DNA of 63,632 nucleotides, the filler included, from Basidiobolus ranarum (taxonomy: Eukaryota): the NCBI GenBank assembly GCA_040143965.1. It is 10 parts of 10 records of this genome, joined end to end, with 100 filler letters (N's around TTAATTAATTAA, not from the genome) between each part and the next. Parts side by side here need not be neighbours in the genome. Positions count along the whole stretch, not along the records: positions 12,767 to 19,047 come from JASJQH010008230.1; 9 more parts are not named here. The stretch is one strand, 5' to 3'. Within the stretch, counting starts at the first letter, position 1. Every line of letters starts with the position of its first letter. Positions 1-31,799 of the stretch are shown here, piece after piece. A program made the translations under genes and the position numbers. Below the pieces are notes generated by a model. The model had not been told where the DNA came from. It made no database searches and was given only the letters and a program-made list of their open reading frames with translations.

Positions 1-530
1 CATTTCAGCTATACAAGCAACTGATTGGCCTTAGACTTTGTGTTCAGATGCAGTCACCATACTCCATATTTTCCTCTTTGGGAATTACTGCTTGTACCAC
101 AAGTCACCAGAATTTAACATATAAGAGTTTAAGAATTTTCTTCATAGCATCATCAAGTGAGCAAGCCCTTTTTGCTCATGATGTTCTACTAGGATTTCCC
201 ATGCATTCTTGACAGAGTCAGCATCTCTGACTAGCATAAGTTGTTGTGATCCCAGTCTTAGACATATTTCCCTAAATGCCAATTGGTCTTTTTCTTTGAA
301 GGTTGCCCTGGCCTCTTTATATGTTGGCTTCTTTGTTTCAGTGTCAGAATCTATACTTTCTTCTTCAGAAGTTTTTTCTTCTTCATCTGGTTGAACTACT
401 TCCCATATATGTTTCCCTTCAAGCACAAGTTGCATCTTGAATTTCCTTTCTTGGAAATCTTCCCCATTGAATGTTGGAATATTAGTAATCTCCTTTTGAG
501 AAGTTGACTCTAACTCACTTGCTGCTACCA
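1..530 (-). mobile_element. Ty1/Copia retrotransposon (family B): PBS and degenerate gag, truncated by window start
   Basis: ORF 142-549 reads IPTFNGEDFQERKFKMQLVLEGKHIWEVV...KDQLAFREICLRL...VRDADSVKNAWEIL, typical of Copia gag (DUF4219/Retrotran_gag_2-like). It ends in a premature stop. PBS-like TGGTAGCAGC (530-521) abuts the LTR end. Confidence 0.85.
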
Positions 531-1050
531 TGTTGGAGGATCTTGACATAATGGGAATAGACTTTGGGTATTAGAAGCAACTTATGGTAGTGTGTTTTAG
601 TTACTTTATTCTTAAGACTATCCCTATGAAAAGTTTGGGAATGAATACCAGTGGAAAACCAGAGAAAACACAAATATAGGGGTAGAAATACCATAAGAAA
701 ATGGGAGGAAAAAAAGACTGGTAGAGAAACCATAAGAAAATTGTTGCAATACCAGCATAATACCATTATGAAACAGTCAGAAAATAGTATGAAATGCAAA
801 TTTAAATTTTTTTTGTTAGAGTATATGCTGACTTATATAGTAGAAAAGTGAATCAATTCTTTGAGATATGCAGGAGTTTGTATAATAACACATAATAGAT
901 AGGTGGAGGTAATAAGAGATAATTGTTATATAGATATAGAGATACTCCTGTTTAGAGTACAGGGGCTATTGCTATGTTGCTTTCTATTTCTTATATATGT
1001 ATCATAACTAAAGTTAACTATGATGGTGAATAAAGATTAATTATCCAACA
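531..1050 (-). mobile_element. 5' LTR (520 bp) of Copia family B element
   Basis: Perfect 7-bp terminal inverted repeat TGTTGGA (531-537) / TCCAACA (1044-1050), directly followed on the minus strand by PBS and gag. TATA-like TATATAA near 833-839. Confidence 0.75.
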
Positions 1051-6284: not shown

Positions 6285-6384
6285 NNNNNNNNNNNNNNNN
6301 NNNNNNNNNNNNNNNNNNNNNNNNNNNNTTAATTAATTAANNNNNNNNNNNNNNNNNNNNNNNNNNNNNNNNNNNNNNNNNNNN
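6285..6384. other. Artificial contig spacer N44-TTAATTAATTAA-N44 (first of nine)
   Basis: Identical 100-bp spacers at 6285, 12667, 19048, 25426, 31800, 38173, 44543, 50909 and 57272; the 12-mer gives stops in all six frames. Confidence 0.99.
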
Positions 6385-6504
6385 CTTGGAAGAAACTGAG
6401 GTAGAGAACGAGTTTGCAACGTCATTAGCACCAATACCATAAGCATCAAGGAATGCAAAGACAATGCAGACGACGAATATCCAAGTAAAGTCGTGGGGCA
6501 ACAT
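6385..6504 (-). CDS. PHO89: Second PiT-family phosphate permease copy, first 40 codons only (cut by contig edge)
   Basis: 120 bp matching 8913-9032 except two synonymous changes in codons 2-3; MLPHDFTWIFVV...GANDVANSFSTSVSSK. It has its own TATA-like TATATAAA upstream (~6563-6570). Confidence 0.88.
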
Positions 6505-11774: not shown

Positions 11775-12121
11775 TGTTAAAGTATTTGGGAGCCTTTGGG
11801 AAGTGGTTTGGAGAATTAGAGGAATTGGTGGTTTTCACTTATTGTTTTATGAGTAGAAAGTTGACATTTATAGTTTTGTCAAGAAGTAAGCAAGCCAACA
11901 TGTAGAATGTGTTAAAGAAGGTCCCAGGAACATGTGTACAAAGTTTGGGGCTTCTAGCACAAGTTTGAAAAATCTAAATATCTGAGTACTTCTAGGTTGG
12001 TAAAGATATTCTAAGTAAATTCCAGTTGAGAATAATTGATATTATCTTAGTGACTTATAAGATAACCAAGTATTGAGCTATATAAGACTACTTAGGTGTT
12101 TAAGCAATGCTAATTTCAACA
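11775..12121 (-). mobile_element. Solo LTR, Copia family A (347 bp), with 5-bp target-site duplication AGGGT
   Basis: TGTT...AACA ends; AGGGT at 11770-11774 and 12122-12126. Confidence 0.92.
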
Positions 12122-12344
12122 AGGGTAAGGATGAAAAGAGTAGGTCTGGGGGATGCAGTCCTCCCAGTATTAAAAGAAAGTAGGGGGTTTGGGGGATGCA
12201 ATCCCATATGTACACCACTGCATAACAATATACACAAGTTACTTGTATATAGAATAAATTTGGCTTGCCCAAATATTCCAAAGGTCAGAAATCCGATCTT
12301 GGACACATGTAAGTAAGAAATAGCAATTGTGATACTATGACAAT

Positions 12345-12557
12345 TGTTGAGATTAGCATTACCTAAGCACCTATATAGTCATATGTAGCTTGGTACTTAG
12401 TAATCTTATAATGAAAAAACATATTACCCATTATTTGCAATTGGAACTTTCTTAGATTATTTTTACAAATCAAGAAGTTCTCAGGTGAGTGGATTTTTAA
12501 AACATGTGCTACAAGCCGCAAACTCTTCACACATGGTTGTGGGACCTTCCTTGACAC
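12345..12557 (+). mobile_element. Diverged family A LTR, interrupted by another LTR
   Basis: Starts TGTTGAGATTAGCATTACCTAAGCACCTATATAGTC and breaks at GGGACCTTCCTTGACAC. Confidence 0.8.
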
Positions 12558-12666
12558 TGTTGAAATTAGCATTGCCTAAACACCTATATAGTCATATATA
12601 GCTTAGTACTTAGTTATCTTGTAATTCACTAAGATATTATCAATTATTCTCAATCGGAATTTACTT
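12558..12666 (+). mobile_element. Family A LTR start, cut by contig end
   Basis: TGTTGAAATTAGCATTGCCTAAACACCTATATAGTC, near-identical to 38046 onward. Confidence 0.85.
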
Positions 12667-12797
12667 NNNNNNNNNNNNNNNNNNNNNNNNNNNNNNNNNN
12701 NNNNNNNNNNTTAATTAATTAANNNNNNNNNNNNNNNNNNNNNNNNNNNNNNNNNNNNNNNNNNNNAAAGGCAATCATTCGTGATAACTAGGTGCAC

Positions 12798-14694
12798 CTA
12801 CGAAAATATGAAAAGATTTTTGGTTGCAGCGACGGCAATGGTATTCTCTCTTGGATGCCATGAGGTATGGAGAATTTTCTTGTTGAAATCCATGGTGTCT
12901 GGATTGATCTCCTCCTTCCTACCATTCTTGGCTCCACGACCAAGGCTCGATTTGTTCTTGGTAGAGCCAGCACGTTTAGCCTTGAAAGCGCTCTTGTCAG
13001 CTTGCAACGTGACTTCTTCCTTGTTGTTCGCATCAAAAATACTGAAATAGTTGCTGTAGGAGCCAGTGAGAATGGAGCTAATTTCTCGAATTAAGGACAA
13101 TGGGTAACACATCGCATGAACGTAGTAAAAGAAAGAAAAATTCAACTGGAAAAAGGATACTTTCCATCGCCGCTGACATTGCATTCAAATTTGTCGAAAA
13201 TACAATCATTTTCGTAAAGATCGCATAACTTGCAGCGATGATGGTCATGGTCGTTGATGGTCTCCACAGGCTTGCTGTCCATATTGATGTCCCAGATTTT
13301 CAGCGTCAGATAATCACGAGAAAGAATGTAGCGACCGTCACTACTGAACTTGACATCCGAGATTGAAGAGATGATTTCCGAGAAGAAGGACCTGCTACTG
13401 GGGTCTTCTTCCTCTTCAAACACTAAACAAATAAAAAAAGAGGTTGTGGTGATTAGCGCTCTGGCAATTGGGTGTGGTGATTGTTAGTATGACTGCCCTA
13501 CTCTTAGCATAGCGATCACAAAGAGCCGCCTCTCTCATATCGCAAAGTTTAATGGTTCCCTTACTACTGCTGTACATGAAAACGTTACAGTGCGATGGAT
13601 GAAACTCAGAAGCAGTAATTACTTCAGTCAGTTCCTCCATATTAGCAGGCTTAATGTCGACAATGTCTATGAAAAGGGAGGTTAAGGAAATAAACACTTT
13701 CAAATAACAATCGATCAATCATTTTCACCACCACAAAAAGATACTGAAGCTCTGGTCACTAATATCCAAGTTCCACAGATTGATTCGTAGATCGTCTCCA
13801 GAAAGGTATGTCTCTCCGTCAGAATTGATGGAGATAGAATTGATGTGATAAGCATGAGCATTAGCATATACCTTTCTGGGCACTGCGGCAACAATAGAAT
13901 CATGGTGGGTGAGTTTGGGAAGTTTTAGAGAGCCAGTGTTCAACGATGGCCGAGCCAAGCCATCTGTTATGTTCTTCTCAGAAACAACCTTTAGAGATTT
14001 CTCAAAAACCTTCCACAATTTGATGGTCTTGTCTGAATAATATTAAAAGTGACATGAGTAATAAGCACAGCACTTGTCCAACTGACCGAGTACGAGTACA
14101 TACCGTTAGTGGAAAGCAAGAAGTGAGCAGAATTTTGGCGTTTGCACCATCTGATCTTGTTAATTCTTTCTTCAATCTCTAAACTCTTCAAGTAATCGAA
14201 TTCAGGCTCGTGAGATTGGAATTCTGTATGAAATTTGTATTCACAGCCTTTTTTCTATAAACAAGTTAGAAATTTGAGGGATAGTTAAGTACGTAGAGTA
14301 AACATACCCCGTCATTTCTCTCAAATAATACCACTCTGCCTCCTCTATCACCAGTGGCAAGATAGTCGCCACTATGGTCAAACTCAACAGTAGAAATTAT
14401 GTCAACTATAGAAAGATCAATTCCAAGTTAGTTATGTCGAAGTATTGATACACGTAAGAAAGTCGATTTGACCAAAGTCAGAGGGGATAATAAGAAGTAA
14501 ACTAGTGGAAGGAAGAAAATAGATAGCTTGGATAAACTTCGCGTAGAATATAGGGCAACTGGGCACATTTCTGAGCTACGTAGAAATAGACCTTTAGAAG
14601 AGAAAATTCAGAACATACCTTCAGAGATGTCTTCGACATCCCCTTTGTCACCAAAACATTGGGCAAATTTCCATCCTCCATCAACTTCAGCCAT
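12798..14694 (-). CDS. CDC55: PP2A regulatory subunit B55 (WD40), 7 exons
   Basis: [125 protein letters not shown]. The exact last codons near the contig edge are uncertain. Confidence 0.96.
13078..13160 (-). other. U12-type (minor) GT-AG intron in CDC55, 83 nt
   Basis: 5'SS GTATCCTTTT; branch TCCTTAAT ending 11 nt before the 3' splice junction; splicing restores SGDGNSILTGSY. Confidence 0.9.
13667..13744 (-). other. U12-type (minor) GT-AG intron in CDC55, 78 nt
   Basis: 5'SS GTATCTTTTT; perfect branch TTTCCTTAAC ending 14 nt before the 3' splice junction; splicing restores QSFNIVDIKP. Confidence 0.88.
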
Positions 14695-15773
14695 ATTTGA
14701 TATAGAAATAGGTAGACAAAAAAGAGTAGATTACTTTAAGACAGGGCGACAGAGAAAAGCTACAGGCTGAGGTGAGAAACAAGACAGCTATAGTGTGTGG
14801 CCGCGAAATTCTCTTGATTTTTTTTAATAGCTGGAATCCTAATAAGTCTGTGTGGCAGATATTGAGCATAAATCAGATTGACCAGGAAACGCAAACACCA
14901 CCCACATCAAGATGATGAATTTCATATGCTGAGCATGTCAACTCATGGTGATTGGATTAGAAATCACATTTTAAGTACGAAATAGGCTCACTCATTAAAA
15001 TATGTGTCTCACCCGTGCTTGTCTATAGTTACTGATACCAACTCGTTAAGAATAACCCAGCTACTAGTCAACAATGGCATTGATTCTGTATTCCAGATTC
15101 AGGCTTCAACCCACCAAAAAACACCGAAGCCCTTGCCAGACAGTAGAACTAAGAGCCTTTGTAACAATGTGTTTGACATGGTGATGAAGCTATCGGCGCG
15201 AAATGATTGGCCTTCACCTTGAGCCAATGGCAGACTGATACTCTTTCCTTGTTTCATTAGCCTTGCCAGAAGCTCAGGCTTACAACTCTCGCTAGATTCA
15301 TTTCCTTTGCTTATTATTAAGAACATTGCATCGTTTGAGCTAAATGAGCCAATTATGACACATGCGTTAGCGGCTCAGCTTTGACCGTGTTCAGTAATAT
15401 CAAATGCCTGAGCTCACGCGGCCCTGAGTGTACAATTTGGAAAATAGCGCTGTGTCCACTGCACATGACAGAATGAAGGTTGCTCTCACAAAATATTTTA
15501 CATACATTCCCGGTGCCTCTTTGATCCAGAATATATCCTTCCAGATCATCGTTGTAAGAATGGTTCTCAGAAATCGTTCCAGAATTGTCATCTTATTTTG
15601 ACGAATTGAGTAAACCGTATTTCATTAATCATTTGTGAATCTTGATTGAATGTCGAACTTCAGTACCATTCATGTACTTAATCCATCGACTGATAAAAGA
15701 GCTCTGAGACCGAAACAAAATAAAATAAAACTCATCGTTCAGGGTCTCTTATTCGTTCTATATTTAACATTAA

Positions 15774-17624
15774 ATGCATAGAGGACTCGAGAATAAAGAG
15801 ACGCTAACTGCCCACCCATTTATACACTATTATTGTGGATGTTCGGACTTGTATAAAATATCTTCAGGTCAGGCTGCTGCTGATATTTCTAATTCGGAAA
15901 CCACTCACAGTTTGCACAAGGATGAGATAGAGTCAGGAAAAGAGAGTGACAGCTCAGAGGAGAACGAACTGGATACTCCGCCTTTTGATTTGTCGGAACA
16001 CGATGTTCATCTGGTAACCCAACCGCTTTCCAAACTTTATTTCTGTGAGAGTTGCCATCAGTTACGCTGCCCACGCTGTGTTCAAAGCGAAATCGTGTGT
16101 TATTATTGCCCCAATTGTTTGTTCGAAGTTCCGACCGCTTCAGTGAAATATGAAAAAAACAGGTAATCGAAGCTTCCAAGAAATTCGAGTAAACTTTATT
16201 AATTCTCTTTCTTTTTCAATCAAGGTGCGGCAGAAATTGCTTCGAGTGCCCTCTTTGTTCAAACACTCTATCAGTAGTGTTATCTGAAAAATCTTCTACT
16301 CAGGGTTCACCTGAAACCCCCGAGTCACTGTATTATTTGCATTGTGGAGTATGTAGATGGAGTTCCAAGGAAATAGAAATGACCTTTGAGCGTCCCACCG
16401 GCTTGGCCAGTAAGAAAATATTGCTTGGCTAAATGAATCTTCACGATATTTTTCTAACTATATATTTTAGTGCAACTTCAAAAGACTGAGGATGAGCAAC
16501 CAGACGTTCAAGAATTCGATAATTTGAAACAGCATTTTGAGCGTTTCTTTCGTGCCAATAATCCACCTTCACTTCCACCCTCTCTACTTTCTATTCCAGG
16601 AGTATCAGGATTCACCAAGACTTCTATGTTGCTACACACCCAACAACAACAACAACAACAAGAAGTCACTCCCTATAAATCAGACGTCGTTGTGGCTGAC
16701 GACAAGGATCTTATCGAGGAGCTGATCAATATGACAGATTCTAGTGAAAGTAAGTGGCCAATATATATTCCTCTGGAATTGATCTTATTCATTTTTATGT
16801 TTATTAGTTACCACTTTGGAGCAGCGTTTGAAGCAATTAAATACTCAATCGTACCGTACTACCGGCTTGTATCCACAGAGGATTCATTTACGTACGAAGC
16901 GTAGTAAGCGATGCAAATCATGTCGACACATTCTGATTAAACCGGATCAGAAGGCACAAGCGACACGTTTCAAAATCAAGTTCACGGCTATGTAATTAGA
17001 GATGTTTGTAAGATTTTTTGTTATAATACTAACATATTTTATTAGGCTATATGTACCTATTATCAATATCGTTAACCAACCCTATCTTGAAATTGGCAAA
17101 CCAACACAAGTCATTTTGAAGTTCACTAATCCTTTGGAGCAAGAAATGGAAATTATTCTAGCCACATCGCAAGTGACTAAAGATAACCAAGCACAGGTAA
17201 TCCTTCGTAGTGTATAGGGCCTTTTTCGACTTGACAACTGACACTTTTTCAGATTAGTGTCTTGGCTCCTCAGTTTAAAGTATATCCATACGCAGATATG
17301 CTTGAATTTGACGAGGAGGAGCGACGAAGACGTTTAGTCTCGGAGACGAACAACTCGACCATCGGTATACATGAGCGCAAGTTAAATACCACTAGCATCA
17401 TTATAGAAGTAGTTCCACAAGCTGAAGTGAAGAATTTTATGGTAATTCTATCCATCATTTATGGAATGTTAATATGAATTACTAATACTTGTACCTAGTT
17501 CCCAATGTTGGTAACATACTCCTACACCTTAAAGTCCGATTCTGAAGATGGAGAAAGCGAAACTCTCACTAAAAAGAAATACTCATTTTGGACCATTATC
17601 GGATTGGGCAGTGTAGATCATTGA
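15774..17624 (+). CDS. Dynactin subunit p62 (DCTN4), 7 exons
   Basis: LYFCESCHQLRCPRCV...YYCPNCLFEVPTASVKYEKNRCGRNCFECPLC, PQRIHLRTKRSKRCKSCRHILIKP; six GT-AG introns; short CAA poly-Q tract near 16641. Confidence 0.93.
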
Positions 17625-18477
17625 GGTCACTGTCACATTAACGAATCCCCATTTTTTACGTTGCTAATTCTCTTCGTATTTGATTCTAAATCCTTTCACT
17701 CCACTCCTTGAATAATACCAACCATTCTTTAGTATACTTATATTACGAACGAAGCAGTTGTTCCACTCTAGTACAAAAAACTAGTAGATTTTTTAATGTA
17801 AAACGAAATAGCGTAGCTATCTCCATTCAAATTCATCCATTGAAGCTTCGGCTCTTTCCAGTGAGCTGTGTTCGCAAGTAAACATTTAAATCAATTTGAT
17901 CGATTATCGCAAGTGTTTATGCACAGGTACATCAAAGCAAATACCCAGACTGTACTTGAGGATTGATGTGTTAGCTACATATGCGATGTAAATCAAACAA
18001 AACCAGTGTTTAATACTCATCTTCTCCAGTAATCATCACAGTAGCAAACAAGCGGACTGGAATCTCAGTCAAAGGCGTAGGTAGTTTATTGGTGGATCTG
18101 CATAACTTCATCAACTCGGAAAATTAGTCATAGTAATGAAGATGGTCAAGTCCGTTTGAACTAATGTTGTACCAGCCAGGTTGTATTTCCCGTACTAGCA
18201 ATAACTGATCAAATTACTCCAAACCCAACTACGTCATTTCAAGCTATGACACAACTACACCCTCAGGATTCCAAATTTAGCGGTGGGGATCTTTAATCTT
18301 GAAATTTTTAGAACGTCTATGCACATGATACTCTTACATCATTTGCACAAATTACTAACAGTATTGACACAATCCAAACTAGGCAAGTCATTCCTTACAT
18401 ACATATATATAGACACACACGCCTACAATGCTAGTGTCAAAATCCTTAACTCAAAAGAATCCAATTATCTTATCAAT

Positions 18478-18978
18478 ATGTCTAAAATCACTGCAACCGC
18501 TAAGAACGCTGCCGGTACCATCCAAGAGAGTCTTGGGAGAATATTCAACAATGAGGGGATGATTGCCAAAGGAGAACAAAAACAGTACGAGGCACACGAA
18601 AAAAAACTTGCTGTTGAGGAGAGAAATGCCAAAGAATACTATTCATCTAAGGGAGTTCCTGTGGAGAGTGGCCATGGTACCACTCACAAGGACGAGGGTG
18701 TACAGTGCTTCTATGGAAATGCTTTGAATATAGATCAATCCTTTGGCTCACCAGGACGTGACAATATTGAAGCAAGCTTGAGTGATACACATGACAGTAA
18801 GACTAAAGTCTCTAATGATCATAAGGTAACTACTAGTGGACACTCTCCCATGTTCGCAGCTGCCTCAGGAATGCATGTAGTTGAAAACCCTGTAGGAAGA
18901 GAGGGATCATATGACTTGGGAGAAAGCTGCACTAATATGGAGACGAATGCCCCGCCGCAGGTTCGACCCCTGCTGTGA
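18478..18978 (+). CDS. Hydrophilic protein with N-terminal CsbD-like segment, 166 aa
   Basis: MSKITATAKNAAGTIQESLGRIFNNEGMIAKGEQKQYEA matches the CsbD/UPF0337 pattern; TATA-like ATATATAG ~70 bp upstream. Confidence 0.65.
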   Translation: MSKITATAKNAAGTIQESLGRIFNNEGMIAKGEQKQYEAHEKKLAVEERNAKEYYSSKGVPVESGHGTTHKDEGVQCFYGNALNIDQSFGSPGRDNIEASLSDTHDSKTKVSNDHKVTTSGHSPMFAAASGMHVVENPVGREGSYDLGESCTNMETNAPPQVRPLL

Positions 18979-19147
18979 GCATTTTTTCTGACTTGAGCTG
19001 ACTAACAAGCGTTTTTTGACTACTTGTTTTATCGTGATGCGCCTTAGNNNNNNNNNNNNNNNNNNNNNNNNNNNNNNNNNNNNNNNNNNNNTTAATTAAT
19101 TAANNNNNNNNNNNNNNNNNNNNNNNNNNNNNNNNNNNNNNNNNNNN

Positions 19148-20905: not shown

Positions 20906-21406
20906 ATTTCCTTTACACCCTCTGATCGAATCCTCTCGCTTTAGAAGTAAATTACATTCAATTGTTCCCCCCCTCCCCCTTGCCTTTTCTATTTGGATAT
21001 CTTTCGATGTAGAGTGACTTGTACCATAATCTACTTTCAATCACCTACACTTGCTTGAAATAAATCCTTAATCACGAATAGAGAATGACTCTTGACTTTT
21101 GGATGGTGAGCTATGTTTTATACTAGATTGTGACGAGATATCGATACAAATTCCACCTTACAAAAGACCAGCGTTGACTCTGATCCAACTACCAGTATAA
21201 CAATGAAAGTAGAAACATTACGAAACGAACATGAAAATCTGGCTAAAATGACCATTCGTCAACATCAATAGACAAGGGACGAAAGATTCATGAACGTTGT
21301 AAAATTTCCATTTCAAATTAATATACATGCTCCAGGATATTAAAACTTACGTAAAACGAAAAGAATTCGTTGAATCTTTCGATAATCATTTCGAAGCACG
21401 TTCAAT

Positions 21407-30671: not shown

Positions 30672-31799
30672 ATGTTTTTCCTGAGTTTCTTAAGAAGTCA
30701 CACATTTCTACTTTTGGTAACACTTGCTACAGTGGTAGTTGCTCAAAGTACATCTGGTATTAGATCACGCTAAATTTCTTTCGTTTTTAACTGTTCTACT
30801 AACACTTTATTTTATAACACAAACAGTTGATGACATTACCACCACCTGTGGACCAAATATATATTGTCTGCCTTTAGAAGGCGCATTATGGTTACCCCAA
30901 CAAAACCGATTTGTCAGATGGAATAGCAAATACCCCACCTTTGCCGTTGCAGGTTTTGTAAATATAAGCCTATACAATACTCAGTCTACCAATCCTGTAA
31001 GGCAATGGCCACTTTATGAGAATGCCGAGGGCCTTCTGGCTATAAATAGTTTTGATTCCAATTGGTTTATTGGAGCCGCTTTAGTCCAAAAGTTCTACTT
31101 TATTATATTAGGCCCTAACGATAACCCGTCCTTGGCTCAATTAGGCCCAGTTTTTTCTATTCAAAGTATGTATAGGCAGAGCATTATTGTCGATCTTGGA
31201 TAGTATTTATAACTATTTAATTGATGAAATAGGTTCGCTTTCATCAACCGCAAGCCCAACTACATCTATCACTAATTCTGCGAGCCCAACATCCAACCCT
31301 AAGCCTTCTGGTATATCCAGCGGGAGTTTTCCCACTGGAACATCTGGCACAAGATTACCAGATCACGAGTCTGGCGGACTCTCAGTTGGGGCCATTTGTG
31401 GAATCGCTGTAGGAAGTGTGCTGTTGGTTACTGCAGTGGCTTGATATCCTTTTTATTTCTCACCCAAATGATCAACTACTGTATAGCATACCCATATTTA
31501 TCCTTAACTTCTTCTCACTCTCATTTATGTCGCTCGACGTCGACAAAAGAATCACAAAAAAGGATACGATTTCCAGCTTGAATCTGAATCTGGATCTGGA
31601 GTTAACGGCTATAGCGCCGCAAGTCCAGCCATTTTAGCTACTGCTCGTGATAACAGCTCAAATAGTGACGCCGACTCAACAATACCTATGTCAGAAAGCC
31701 TTAGCCCTACCAAGCGAAACTCTCTTTGCCTTACTGTCAAGGGTGCTCAAGAACTAGCCCACGCCGTATCAGACTTTGGTAACTCTGCTTCACAGTTTT
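30672..31799 (+). CDS. Type I single-pass surface protein (signal peptide, globular ectodomain, S/T stalk, TM, cytoplasmic tail); 3' end cut by contig edge
   Basis: MFFLSFLRSHTFLLLVTLATVVVAQ; introns 30748-30826, 31166-31232 (GT-AG) and 31444-31518 (AT-AC); TM GLSVGAICGIAVGSVLLVTAVACLIYVA followed by RRRQK; the frame stays open to the contig end. Confidence 0.85.
31444..31518 (+). other. U12-type AT-AC intron, 75 nt
   Basis: 5'SS ATATCCTTTT, branch TCCTTAAC at 31501-31508, 3'SS CAC. Removal deletes in-frame stops and joins TG+T (Cys) inside the TM helix. Confidence 0.92.

Follow-up and report, generated by a model that had tools for sequence, protein, structure and literature searches.

Two probable U12-type introns in a B55/Cdc55 gene of the fungus Basidiobolus ranarum

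We analyzed a stretch of 63,632 nucleotides (nt) from Basidiobolus ranarum (NCBI GenBank assembly GCA_040143965.1), referred to here in its entirety as the window, for the splice signals of a gene encoding the B55/Cdc55 regulatory subunit of protein phosphatase 2A (PP2A). The window is made up of ten contigs in descending order of length, from 6284 down to 6261 bases, and has a G+C content of 38%. The contigs are joined by linkers of the form N44-TTAATTAATTAA-N44 (6285-6384, 12667-12766, 19048-19147 and so on), so that neighbouring pieces are without physical linkage. The B55 gene lies on the contig that occupies 12767..19047 (JASJQH010008230.1). An earlier note on this DNA had proposed that two of its introns are of the U12 type, removed by the minor spliceosome, and that the positions of both may be ancestral. 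The gene has the following organization, with exons as given by our splice model.

12798..14694, minus strand: PP2A regulatory subunit B55/Cdc55 gene; ATG at 14694, stop codon 12800..12798; seven exons, 439 amino acids (aa)
14619..14694, minus strand: exon 1
14406..14618, minus strand: intron 1, 213 nt, GTATGT..TATAG, phase 1, U2-type
14308..14405, minus strand: exon 2
14255..14307, minus strand: intron 2, 53 nt, GTATGT..TATAG, phase 0, U2-type
14104..14254, minus strand: exon 3
14033..14103, minus strand: intron 3, 71 nt, GTATGT..TTCAG, phase 1, U2-type; an intron is found at the same site in metagenome locus L074
13745..14032, minus strand: exon 4, aligned to human B55 alpha residues 117-212
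13667..13744, minus strand: intron 4, 78 nt, phase 1, probable U12-type GT-AG intron
13502..13666, minus strand: exon 5
13423..13501, minus strand: intron 5, 79 nt, GTAGGG..TTTAG, phase 1, U2-type; a GT-AG intron is found at the same site in metagenome locus L012
13161..13422, minus strand: exon 6
13078..13160, minus strand: intron 6, 83 nt, phase 2, probable U12-type GT-AG intron
12798..13077, minus strand: exon 7 and stop codon, encoding 92 conserved C-terminal residues

Splicing the seven exons by coordinate gives a 1320-nt frame of 439 codons plus the stop codon. Exon 4 matched human B55 alpha in the PDB with an E value of 5e-26 (query residues 1-95 on chain residues 117-212) and recovered 2605 relatives in a database search. 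The best of these is a 100% identical protein of 352 aa that carries the NCBI name 'protein phosphatase 2A regulatory subunit cdc55 [Basidiobolus ranarum]'. Pfam searches with single exons gave only weak WD40 matches, below the cut-off. The exon 4 matches identify the gene as a fungal B55/Cdc55, in agreement with the assignment made in the earlier note. Of 232 alignment columns without variation among 16 homologues, the gene model departs from the consensus at 2, and this falls within the range of 0-8 obtained when each homologue is left out in turn, indicating by this measure that the gene is intact and constrained.

The deposited 352-aa model (P0001) splices intron 4 but reads through intron 6, ending within it at GDGKYPFSS and a stop, and so is without the 92 C-terminal residues present in all 12 other aligned homologues. 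The translation of exon 7 is identical at 84 of 92 residues (91%) to the C-terminus of a Basidiobolus meristosporus B55, and at 66 of 92 to a Jimgerdemannia B55. This identity indicates that exon 7 is coding and hence that intron 6 must be removed; the actual product, as predicted from the sequence, is most likely 439 aa long. The truncation most plausibly arose because gene prediction missed a donor of unusual type. In two other B. ranarum paralogues the intron-6 site was spliced correctly in the same annotation. The B55 paralogues of B. meristosporus are P0004, P0005 and P0044.

We compared the splice signals of introns 4 and 6 with the U12-type consensus, for which PMC8848931 gives the donor RTATCCTTT and the branch motif TTCCTTRAY; the consensus quoted in the earlier note agrees with it. 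Here and below, a slash marks a splice junction. Intron 4 has the donor tca/GTATCTTTTT at 13744..13735 and the acceptor CATAG/ac. Its branch motif, TTTCCTTAAC at 13690..13681, is a full match to TTCCTTRAY and places the branch A at 13682, 15 nt from the 3' end. Intron 6 has the donor aaa/GTATCCTTTT at 13160..13151, an exact match to RTATCCTT(T), and the acceptor TTAG/ct. Its branch motif, TCCTTAAT at 13097..13090, matches TCCTTRAY and lies within TGTCCTTAAT, which agrees with the longer consensus TTCCTTRAY at 8 of 9 positions; the branch A at 13091 is 13 nt from the 3' end. The usual distance from the branch A to the 3' splice site of a U12-type intron is about 10-20 nt. Both introns have GT-AG termini. 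Position +5 of the donor is C in introns 4 and 6 and G in all four U2-type introns of the gene, the donors of which are the ordinary GTATGT in three cases and GTAGGG in one. The phases of introns 4 and 6 are 1 and 2, and minor introns show a phase bias of 1 > 2 > 0 (PMC10639083).

Both junctions recreate peptides common to all 13 aligned homologues (DQSF/NIVDIKP at intron 4 and GDG-N-SILTGSY at intron 6), and no other GT/AG pair near the two introns keeps these conserved junction peptides. In donor, branch motif, branch-point distance and termini, introns 4 and 6 have the make-up of U12-type introns, and everything that the earlier note had described of these signals, including the closeness of the branch motifs to the AG and the restoration of conserved protein by both splices, was borne out. 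We consider it highly probable from these signals that introns 4 and 6 of the B. ranarum B55/Cdc55 gene truly belong to the U12-type (minor-spliceosome) class of GT-AG introns.

The frequency with which such signals arise by chance was estimated for a composite consisting of [AG]TATC[CT]TT, then TCCTTRAY, then the matching AG or AC 8-21 nt past the branch A, all within 300 nt. Four composites were found on both strands of the ten contigs, compared to a mean of 0.23 in 300 dinucleotide-preserving shuffles, an approximately 17-fold excess. The shuffle maximum was 2, with three or more composites reached in 0 of 300. Three of the four lie in frame in coding sequence, these being introns 4 and 6 and a third at 31444..31518. 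The window contains 24 RTATCCT sites, among which only those at 13160 and 31444 are followed by a branch-like motif (at most one mismatch) and a matching AG or AC at branch distance; three further sites have a one-mismatch branch motif without that configuration. The two composites outside the B55 gene are as follows.

31444..31518, plus strand: putative AT-AC U12-type intron with perfect motifs, 75 nt, phase 2, on a separate contig; donor ATATCCTTTT, TCCTTAAC at 31501..31508, branch A 11 nt from the AC
20997..21089, plus strand: U12-like composite ATATCTTT .. TCCTTAAT .. AC, after the stop codon of a neighbouring gene

The host of the putative intron at 31444..31518 is a Ser/Thr-rich membrane protein without a Pfam match, and the intron lies inside a transmembrane segment. 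Left unspliced, the reading frame runs immediately into a TGA; spliced, it continues through the transmembrane segment and a basic tail in frame to the end of the contig. The composite at 20997..21089 lies outside coding sequence, just past the stop codon of a gene whose C-terminus resembles 3,4-dihydroxy-2-butanone-4-phosphate synthase; it is probably a chance occurrence, and was treated as such. An intron finder that bridged open reading frames (ORFs) was also tried as a way to define the U2 consensus of the species; it returned 818 candidates, was far too unspecific for this, and was dropped.

We examined the positions of introns 4 and 6, referred to as sites 4 and 6, in B55 genes of other organisms. 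Donors were read from prokaryote-style ORF calls that run past exon ends on eukaryotic contigs, a reading that fixes codons only and not every base. Among the 120 best longer fungal matches at site 4, 107 continue into NIVD, 4 jump to a later exon, 2 are without the motif, and 7 read through. The seven comprise an unnamed fragment with SILF, a partial model from Entrophospora sp. SA101 (Glomeromycota) with SILFTLI, and others with SE, SK, SK, SM and ST. In the 120 best near-length fungal matches, F/S was found in 120/120, indicating that an intron is present at site 4. One of these fragments continues with SIL and two with SIS, and in the remaining 117 of 120 the residues exclude ATC at +3 to +5. 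The Entrophospora SILFTLI, together with the unnamed SILF and SILL fragments, suggests that a second fungal phylum has this U12-type donor too, as far as peptides can tell.

Metagenomes were scanned as well. From 490 confirmed loci 80 were kept, of which 72 have a single continuous match and look like complementary DNA (cDNA), and 8 have more than one match. Among those 80, introns at the sites of the B55 gene were found only in L074 (sites 3 and 4) and L012 (site 5). L074 has a GTGAGT..GCTAAC intron at exactly site 4 and in the same phase. Further contig scans and one viral scan yielded only L081, a GC-rich divergent B55 without an intron at site 4 or 6. The site-4 intron became, or was replaced by, a major-type intron in most fungi. 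We also observed that the annotated B55 models P0013, P0016, P0017 and P0115 (from Funneliformis, Racocetra, Gigaspora and a Kwoniella) skip from where exon 4 ends to sequence farther along, with three of them omitting the whole equivalent of exon 5; these jumps may be mis-predictions beside the site-4 intron.

For animals, a profile of the 60 residues before site 4 was built from ten animal-like metatranscriptome cDNAs and used to search 1.84 billion representatives. The 150 best representatives comprise 28 that are spliced or intronless and 122 that read through. The read-through begins with S-I-L in 101 cases, S-I-F in 5, another S-I in 2 and SK in 5; SR, SM, S and RFN occur once each, and 5 fragments diverge two codons earlier (TDQ/V..). 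The exon-final residue before S-I-L or S-I-F is F, or in a few fragments Y. S-I-L corresponds to A/GT ATC CTn, and in 67 of 93 S-I-L fragments (those scored by the first pattern) the codon for the fourth residue begins with T, as RTATCCTTT predicts. The 13-residue string INLWHLEITDRSF of human B55 alpha is present in 23 of the 101 S-I-L fragments, and one fragment shares approximately 94% identity with residues 150-212 of human B55 alpha, after which it has SILFLQ in place of the human NIVDIK.

Published lists place minor introns in this gene family. Mouse Ppp2r2b, 2c and 2d count as minor-intron genes in PMC8848931, and supplement file 1 of PMC11347168 lists one intron per PPP2R2 gene, as 'minor' in human PPP2R2A and PPP2R2D, mouse Ppp2r2b and Ppp2r2d, and zebrafish ppp2r2bb, ppp2r2ca and ppp2r2d, and as 'minor-like' in mouse Ppp2r2a and zebrafish ppp2r2cb. 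The statement in the earlier note that animal PPP2R2 genes carry minor introns is thus supported by print. The same supplement has no entries under the Arabidopsis and Drosophila identifiers tried. The S-I-L read-throughs indicate, at the resolution of codons, that the animal PPP2R2 minor intron lies at the same codon and in the same phase as intron 4 of the window. Given this shared codon and phase, intron 4 looks ancestral, dating back at least to the ancestor shared by animals and fungi.

The five animal-like fragments that diverge two codons before site 4 (P0385, P0395, P0397, P0417 and P0421; 'TDQ/VS..' or 'TDQ/VR..') fit a GTAAG-type donor 7 nt upstream, and one of them is an NCBI B55 delta isoform model. 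On this codon-level reading they may mark an animal lineage in which a major-type intron, at a shifted position, has taken the place of the minor one.

A different picture was obtained for site 6 (phase 2, after GDG and two bases). Among 120 near-length fungal fragments, the reading carries on into exon 7 in 2 and breaks off or diverges directly past the split codon in 118. The continuation in these 118 is an immediate stop (GTAA or GTGA) in 49, CV in 26, YV in 22, YA in 5, CA in 2, and other residues in 14. An intron at site 6 looks almost universal in fungi and, to judge from these continuations, of the U2 type in 118/118 other fragments. The fragments thus indicate that the site of intron 6 is old in fungi, and that the minor type is so far found only in this gene. 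The suggestion that both introns are at ancestral minor-intron positions is supported for intron 4 only, where S-I-L was read in 101 of the 122 animal-like read-throughs; at site 6 in fungi, U12-like donors number 0 of 118.

Two histories of intron 6 can be considered. One is that of an old minor intron which, in all the other fragments compared, has since been converted. Another possibility, which we regard as open to considerable doubt, is that a major-to-minor switch, or some other lineage-specific origin of a minor intron, occurred at the existing site in the Basidiobolus lineage. The vertebrate lists favour this second history in that they name one minor intron per PPP2R2 gene, which site 4 accounts for; it is also favoured by the U2-like donor in 118/118 other fungal fragments and by the correct splicing of this site in the two B. 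ranarum paralogues. In the literature, conversion is assumed to proceed almost solely from minor to major, and the reconstructed ancestor of the Zoopagomycota has a low minor-intron density (PMC10639083).

If introns 4 and 6 are of the U12 type, the U11 small nuclear ribonucleoprotein (snRNP) would pair with the GTATC(C/T)TTT donor and the U12 snRNP with the (T)TCCTTAA(C/T) branch motif, the second A being bulged 13-15 nt upstream of the AG. U4atac/U6atac.U5 would then catalyse the splicing of both introns, and the four introns with GTATGT or GTAGGG donors would be removed by the major spliceosome. Removal of both minor introns would yield a 439-aa subunit with seven WD40 blades, while retention of intron 6 would yield a protein without its last 92 residues.

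Several observations weigh against this interpretation and need to be set beside the evidence for it. The donor of intron 4, GTATCTTTTT, has one departure from the consensus, T in place of C at +6. YP[FL], the signature of GTATCCTT, occurs at site 6 in 0 of 118 other fragments and is confined to the window gene, and peptide-read donors have the resolution of codons described above. An Rfam search of the window gave no matches at the gathering score, for a minor small nuclear RNA (snRNA) or otherwise, and a Pfam search of the 36 window ORFs of at least 110 aa found ordinary genes only and no U11/U12-specific family. The T at +6 is also the starting point for the view that one or both introns are spliced by the major (U2-type) spliceosome, the U12-like motifs being relics or chance, with intron 4 (GTATCT) caught in mid-conversion from minor to major. 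That direction of change is the accepted one (PMC10639083), and most fungal fragments at site 4 are U2-like, with 117 of the 120 near-length fragments lacking S-I and with GTGAGT..GCTAAC in L074. In producing the deposited model, the gene predictor recognized and spliced intron 4. The sequences TTAAC and TTAAT are likewise compatible with YTRAY, the loose branch pattern of fungal U2 introns, which counts for a U2-type reading. We nevertheless consider splicing by the major spliceosome unlikely, as both donors have C at +5, unlike the G of all four U2-type introns, and both introns have the full 8-nt TCCTTAAY 13-15 nt from the AG, in composites approximately 17-fold above expectation. Furthermore, a C-to-T change at +6 would be expected to preserve a G.U pair with the snRNA.

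The deposited model, with its end at GDGKYPFSS and a stop within intron 6, could also be taken at face value, intron 6 being retained, a truncated 352-aa protein made, and exon 7 a dead remnant. We hold this to be very unlikely, since the reading frame of exon 7 stays open for 92 codons, with the identities to B. meristosporus (84/92) and Jimgerdemannia (66/92) given above, and all 12 other aligned homologues run through the junction of exons 6 and 7; on the alignment to B55 alpha, truncation would cost the WD40 propeller its last blades. That the motifs are simply chance matches in ordinary AT-rich introns could be argued from the 38% G+C of the window and from the one composite of the four (20997..21089) that is noncoding and probably chance. 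This we consider extremely unlikely, given that 0 of 300 shuffles reach three composites and that the three coding composites are all in frame, each being needed for an open, conserved reading frame. Removal of introns 4 and 6 by the minor spliceosome is therefore the interpretation we favour.

This interpretation corrects a public gene model, in which 92 residues were lost through a missed unusual donor. It also offers a clean example of a single minor intron retained at one codon in animals and two fungal phyla, most fungi having a major-type intron there. Intron 6 is a candidate for the rare major-to-minor change and, if such a switch did occur, would be a concrete example of a direction of conversion held almost never to happen. 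A literature search pairing PPP2R2A with minor introns found no paper, and no published statement on the Basidiobolus B55 gene was found in a search that lay outside the supplementary per-intron lists. Minor introns have already been described in print for Basidiobolus and for vertebrate PPP2R2 genes, and what is known of minor introns overall is left unchanged by the B55 finding.

Other features of the window were noted in passing. On the B55 contig, the ORF at 15774..16163 (plus strand) is the start of a neighbouring gene for a dynactin p62 family protein (Pfam, E 3e-19). The ORF at 145..570 (minus strand) encodes the gag domain of a copia-type long terminal repeat retrotransposon (Pfam, E 2e-14). 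An AT-rich element of approximately 70 nt (..AAGATAACTAAGTACTAAGCTATATATGACTATATAGGTG..) is present in several direct and inverted copies at about 12040..12640, near the end of the contig at 6385..12666, and may represent a small repeat family that broke the assembly.

Among known systems, intron 4 most directly resembles the minor intron of vertebrate PPP2R2A/B/C/D, with which it shares gene family, GT-AG termini and phase 1. Both intron 4 and the animal-like SF/SIL (A/GTATCCT) follow an F aligned to F212 of human B55 alpha. The differences are in length, vertebrate PPP2R2 minor introns being about 0.3-13 kb by their listed coordinates compared to 78 nt for intron 4, and in the T at +6 of intron 4. 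The human PPP2R2A intron at chr8:26361152-26362683 is designated 'minor' in supplement file 1 of PMC11347168, and the tie between it and intron 4 is made through the read-through fragments.

Within the fungi, the closest comparison is to B. meristosporus, which belongs to the same genus but is a different species. It has been credited with 249 minor introns (0.554%), the top density among fungi (PMC10639083), and elsewhere with 237, along with genes for U11, U12 and U6atac and a U4atac of low confidence only (PMC11347168). Minor snRNA genes are thus reported from the genus, which is known to operate a minor spliceosome, and the motifs found here are those of U12-type introns in general. Rhizophagus irregularis (Glomeromycota) has 205 minor introns, and no convincing ones are described from the Ascomycota and Basidiomycota (PMC10639083); Rhizopus and Phycomyces have few U12 introns (PMC2846911). 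SILFTLI of the Glomeromycota, and SILF and SILL in the two unnamed fragments, resemble intron 4 at site 4 and are known from peptides alone. The introns of other fungi at sites 4 and 6 share positions and phases with those of the window gene but differ in their donors, which have G at +5 or are otherwise not RTATCC (SE, SK, SM and others at site 4; a stop, YV, CV, YA and others at site 6), and on the basis of these donors they would be expected to be removed by the major spliceosome.

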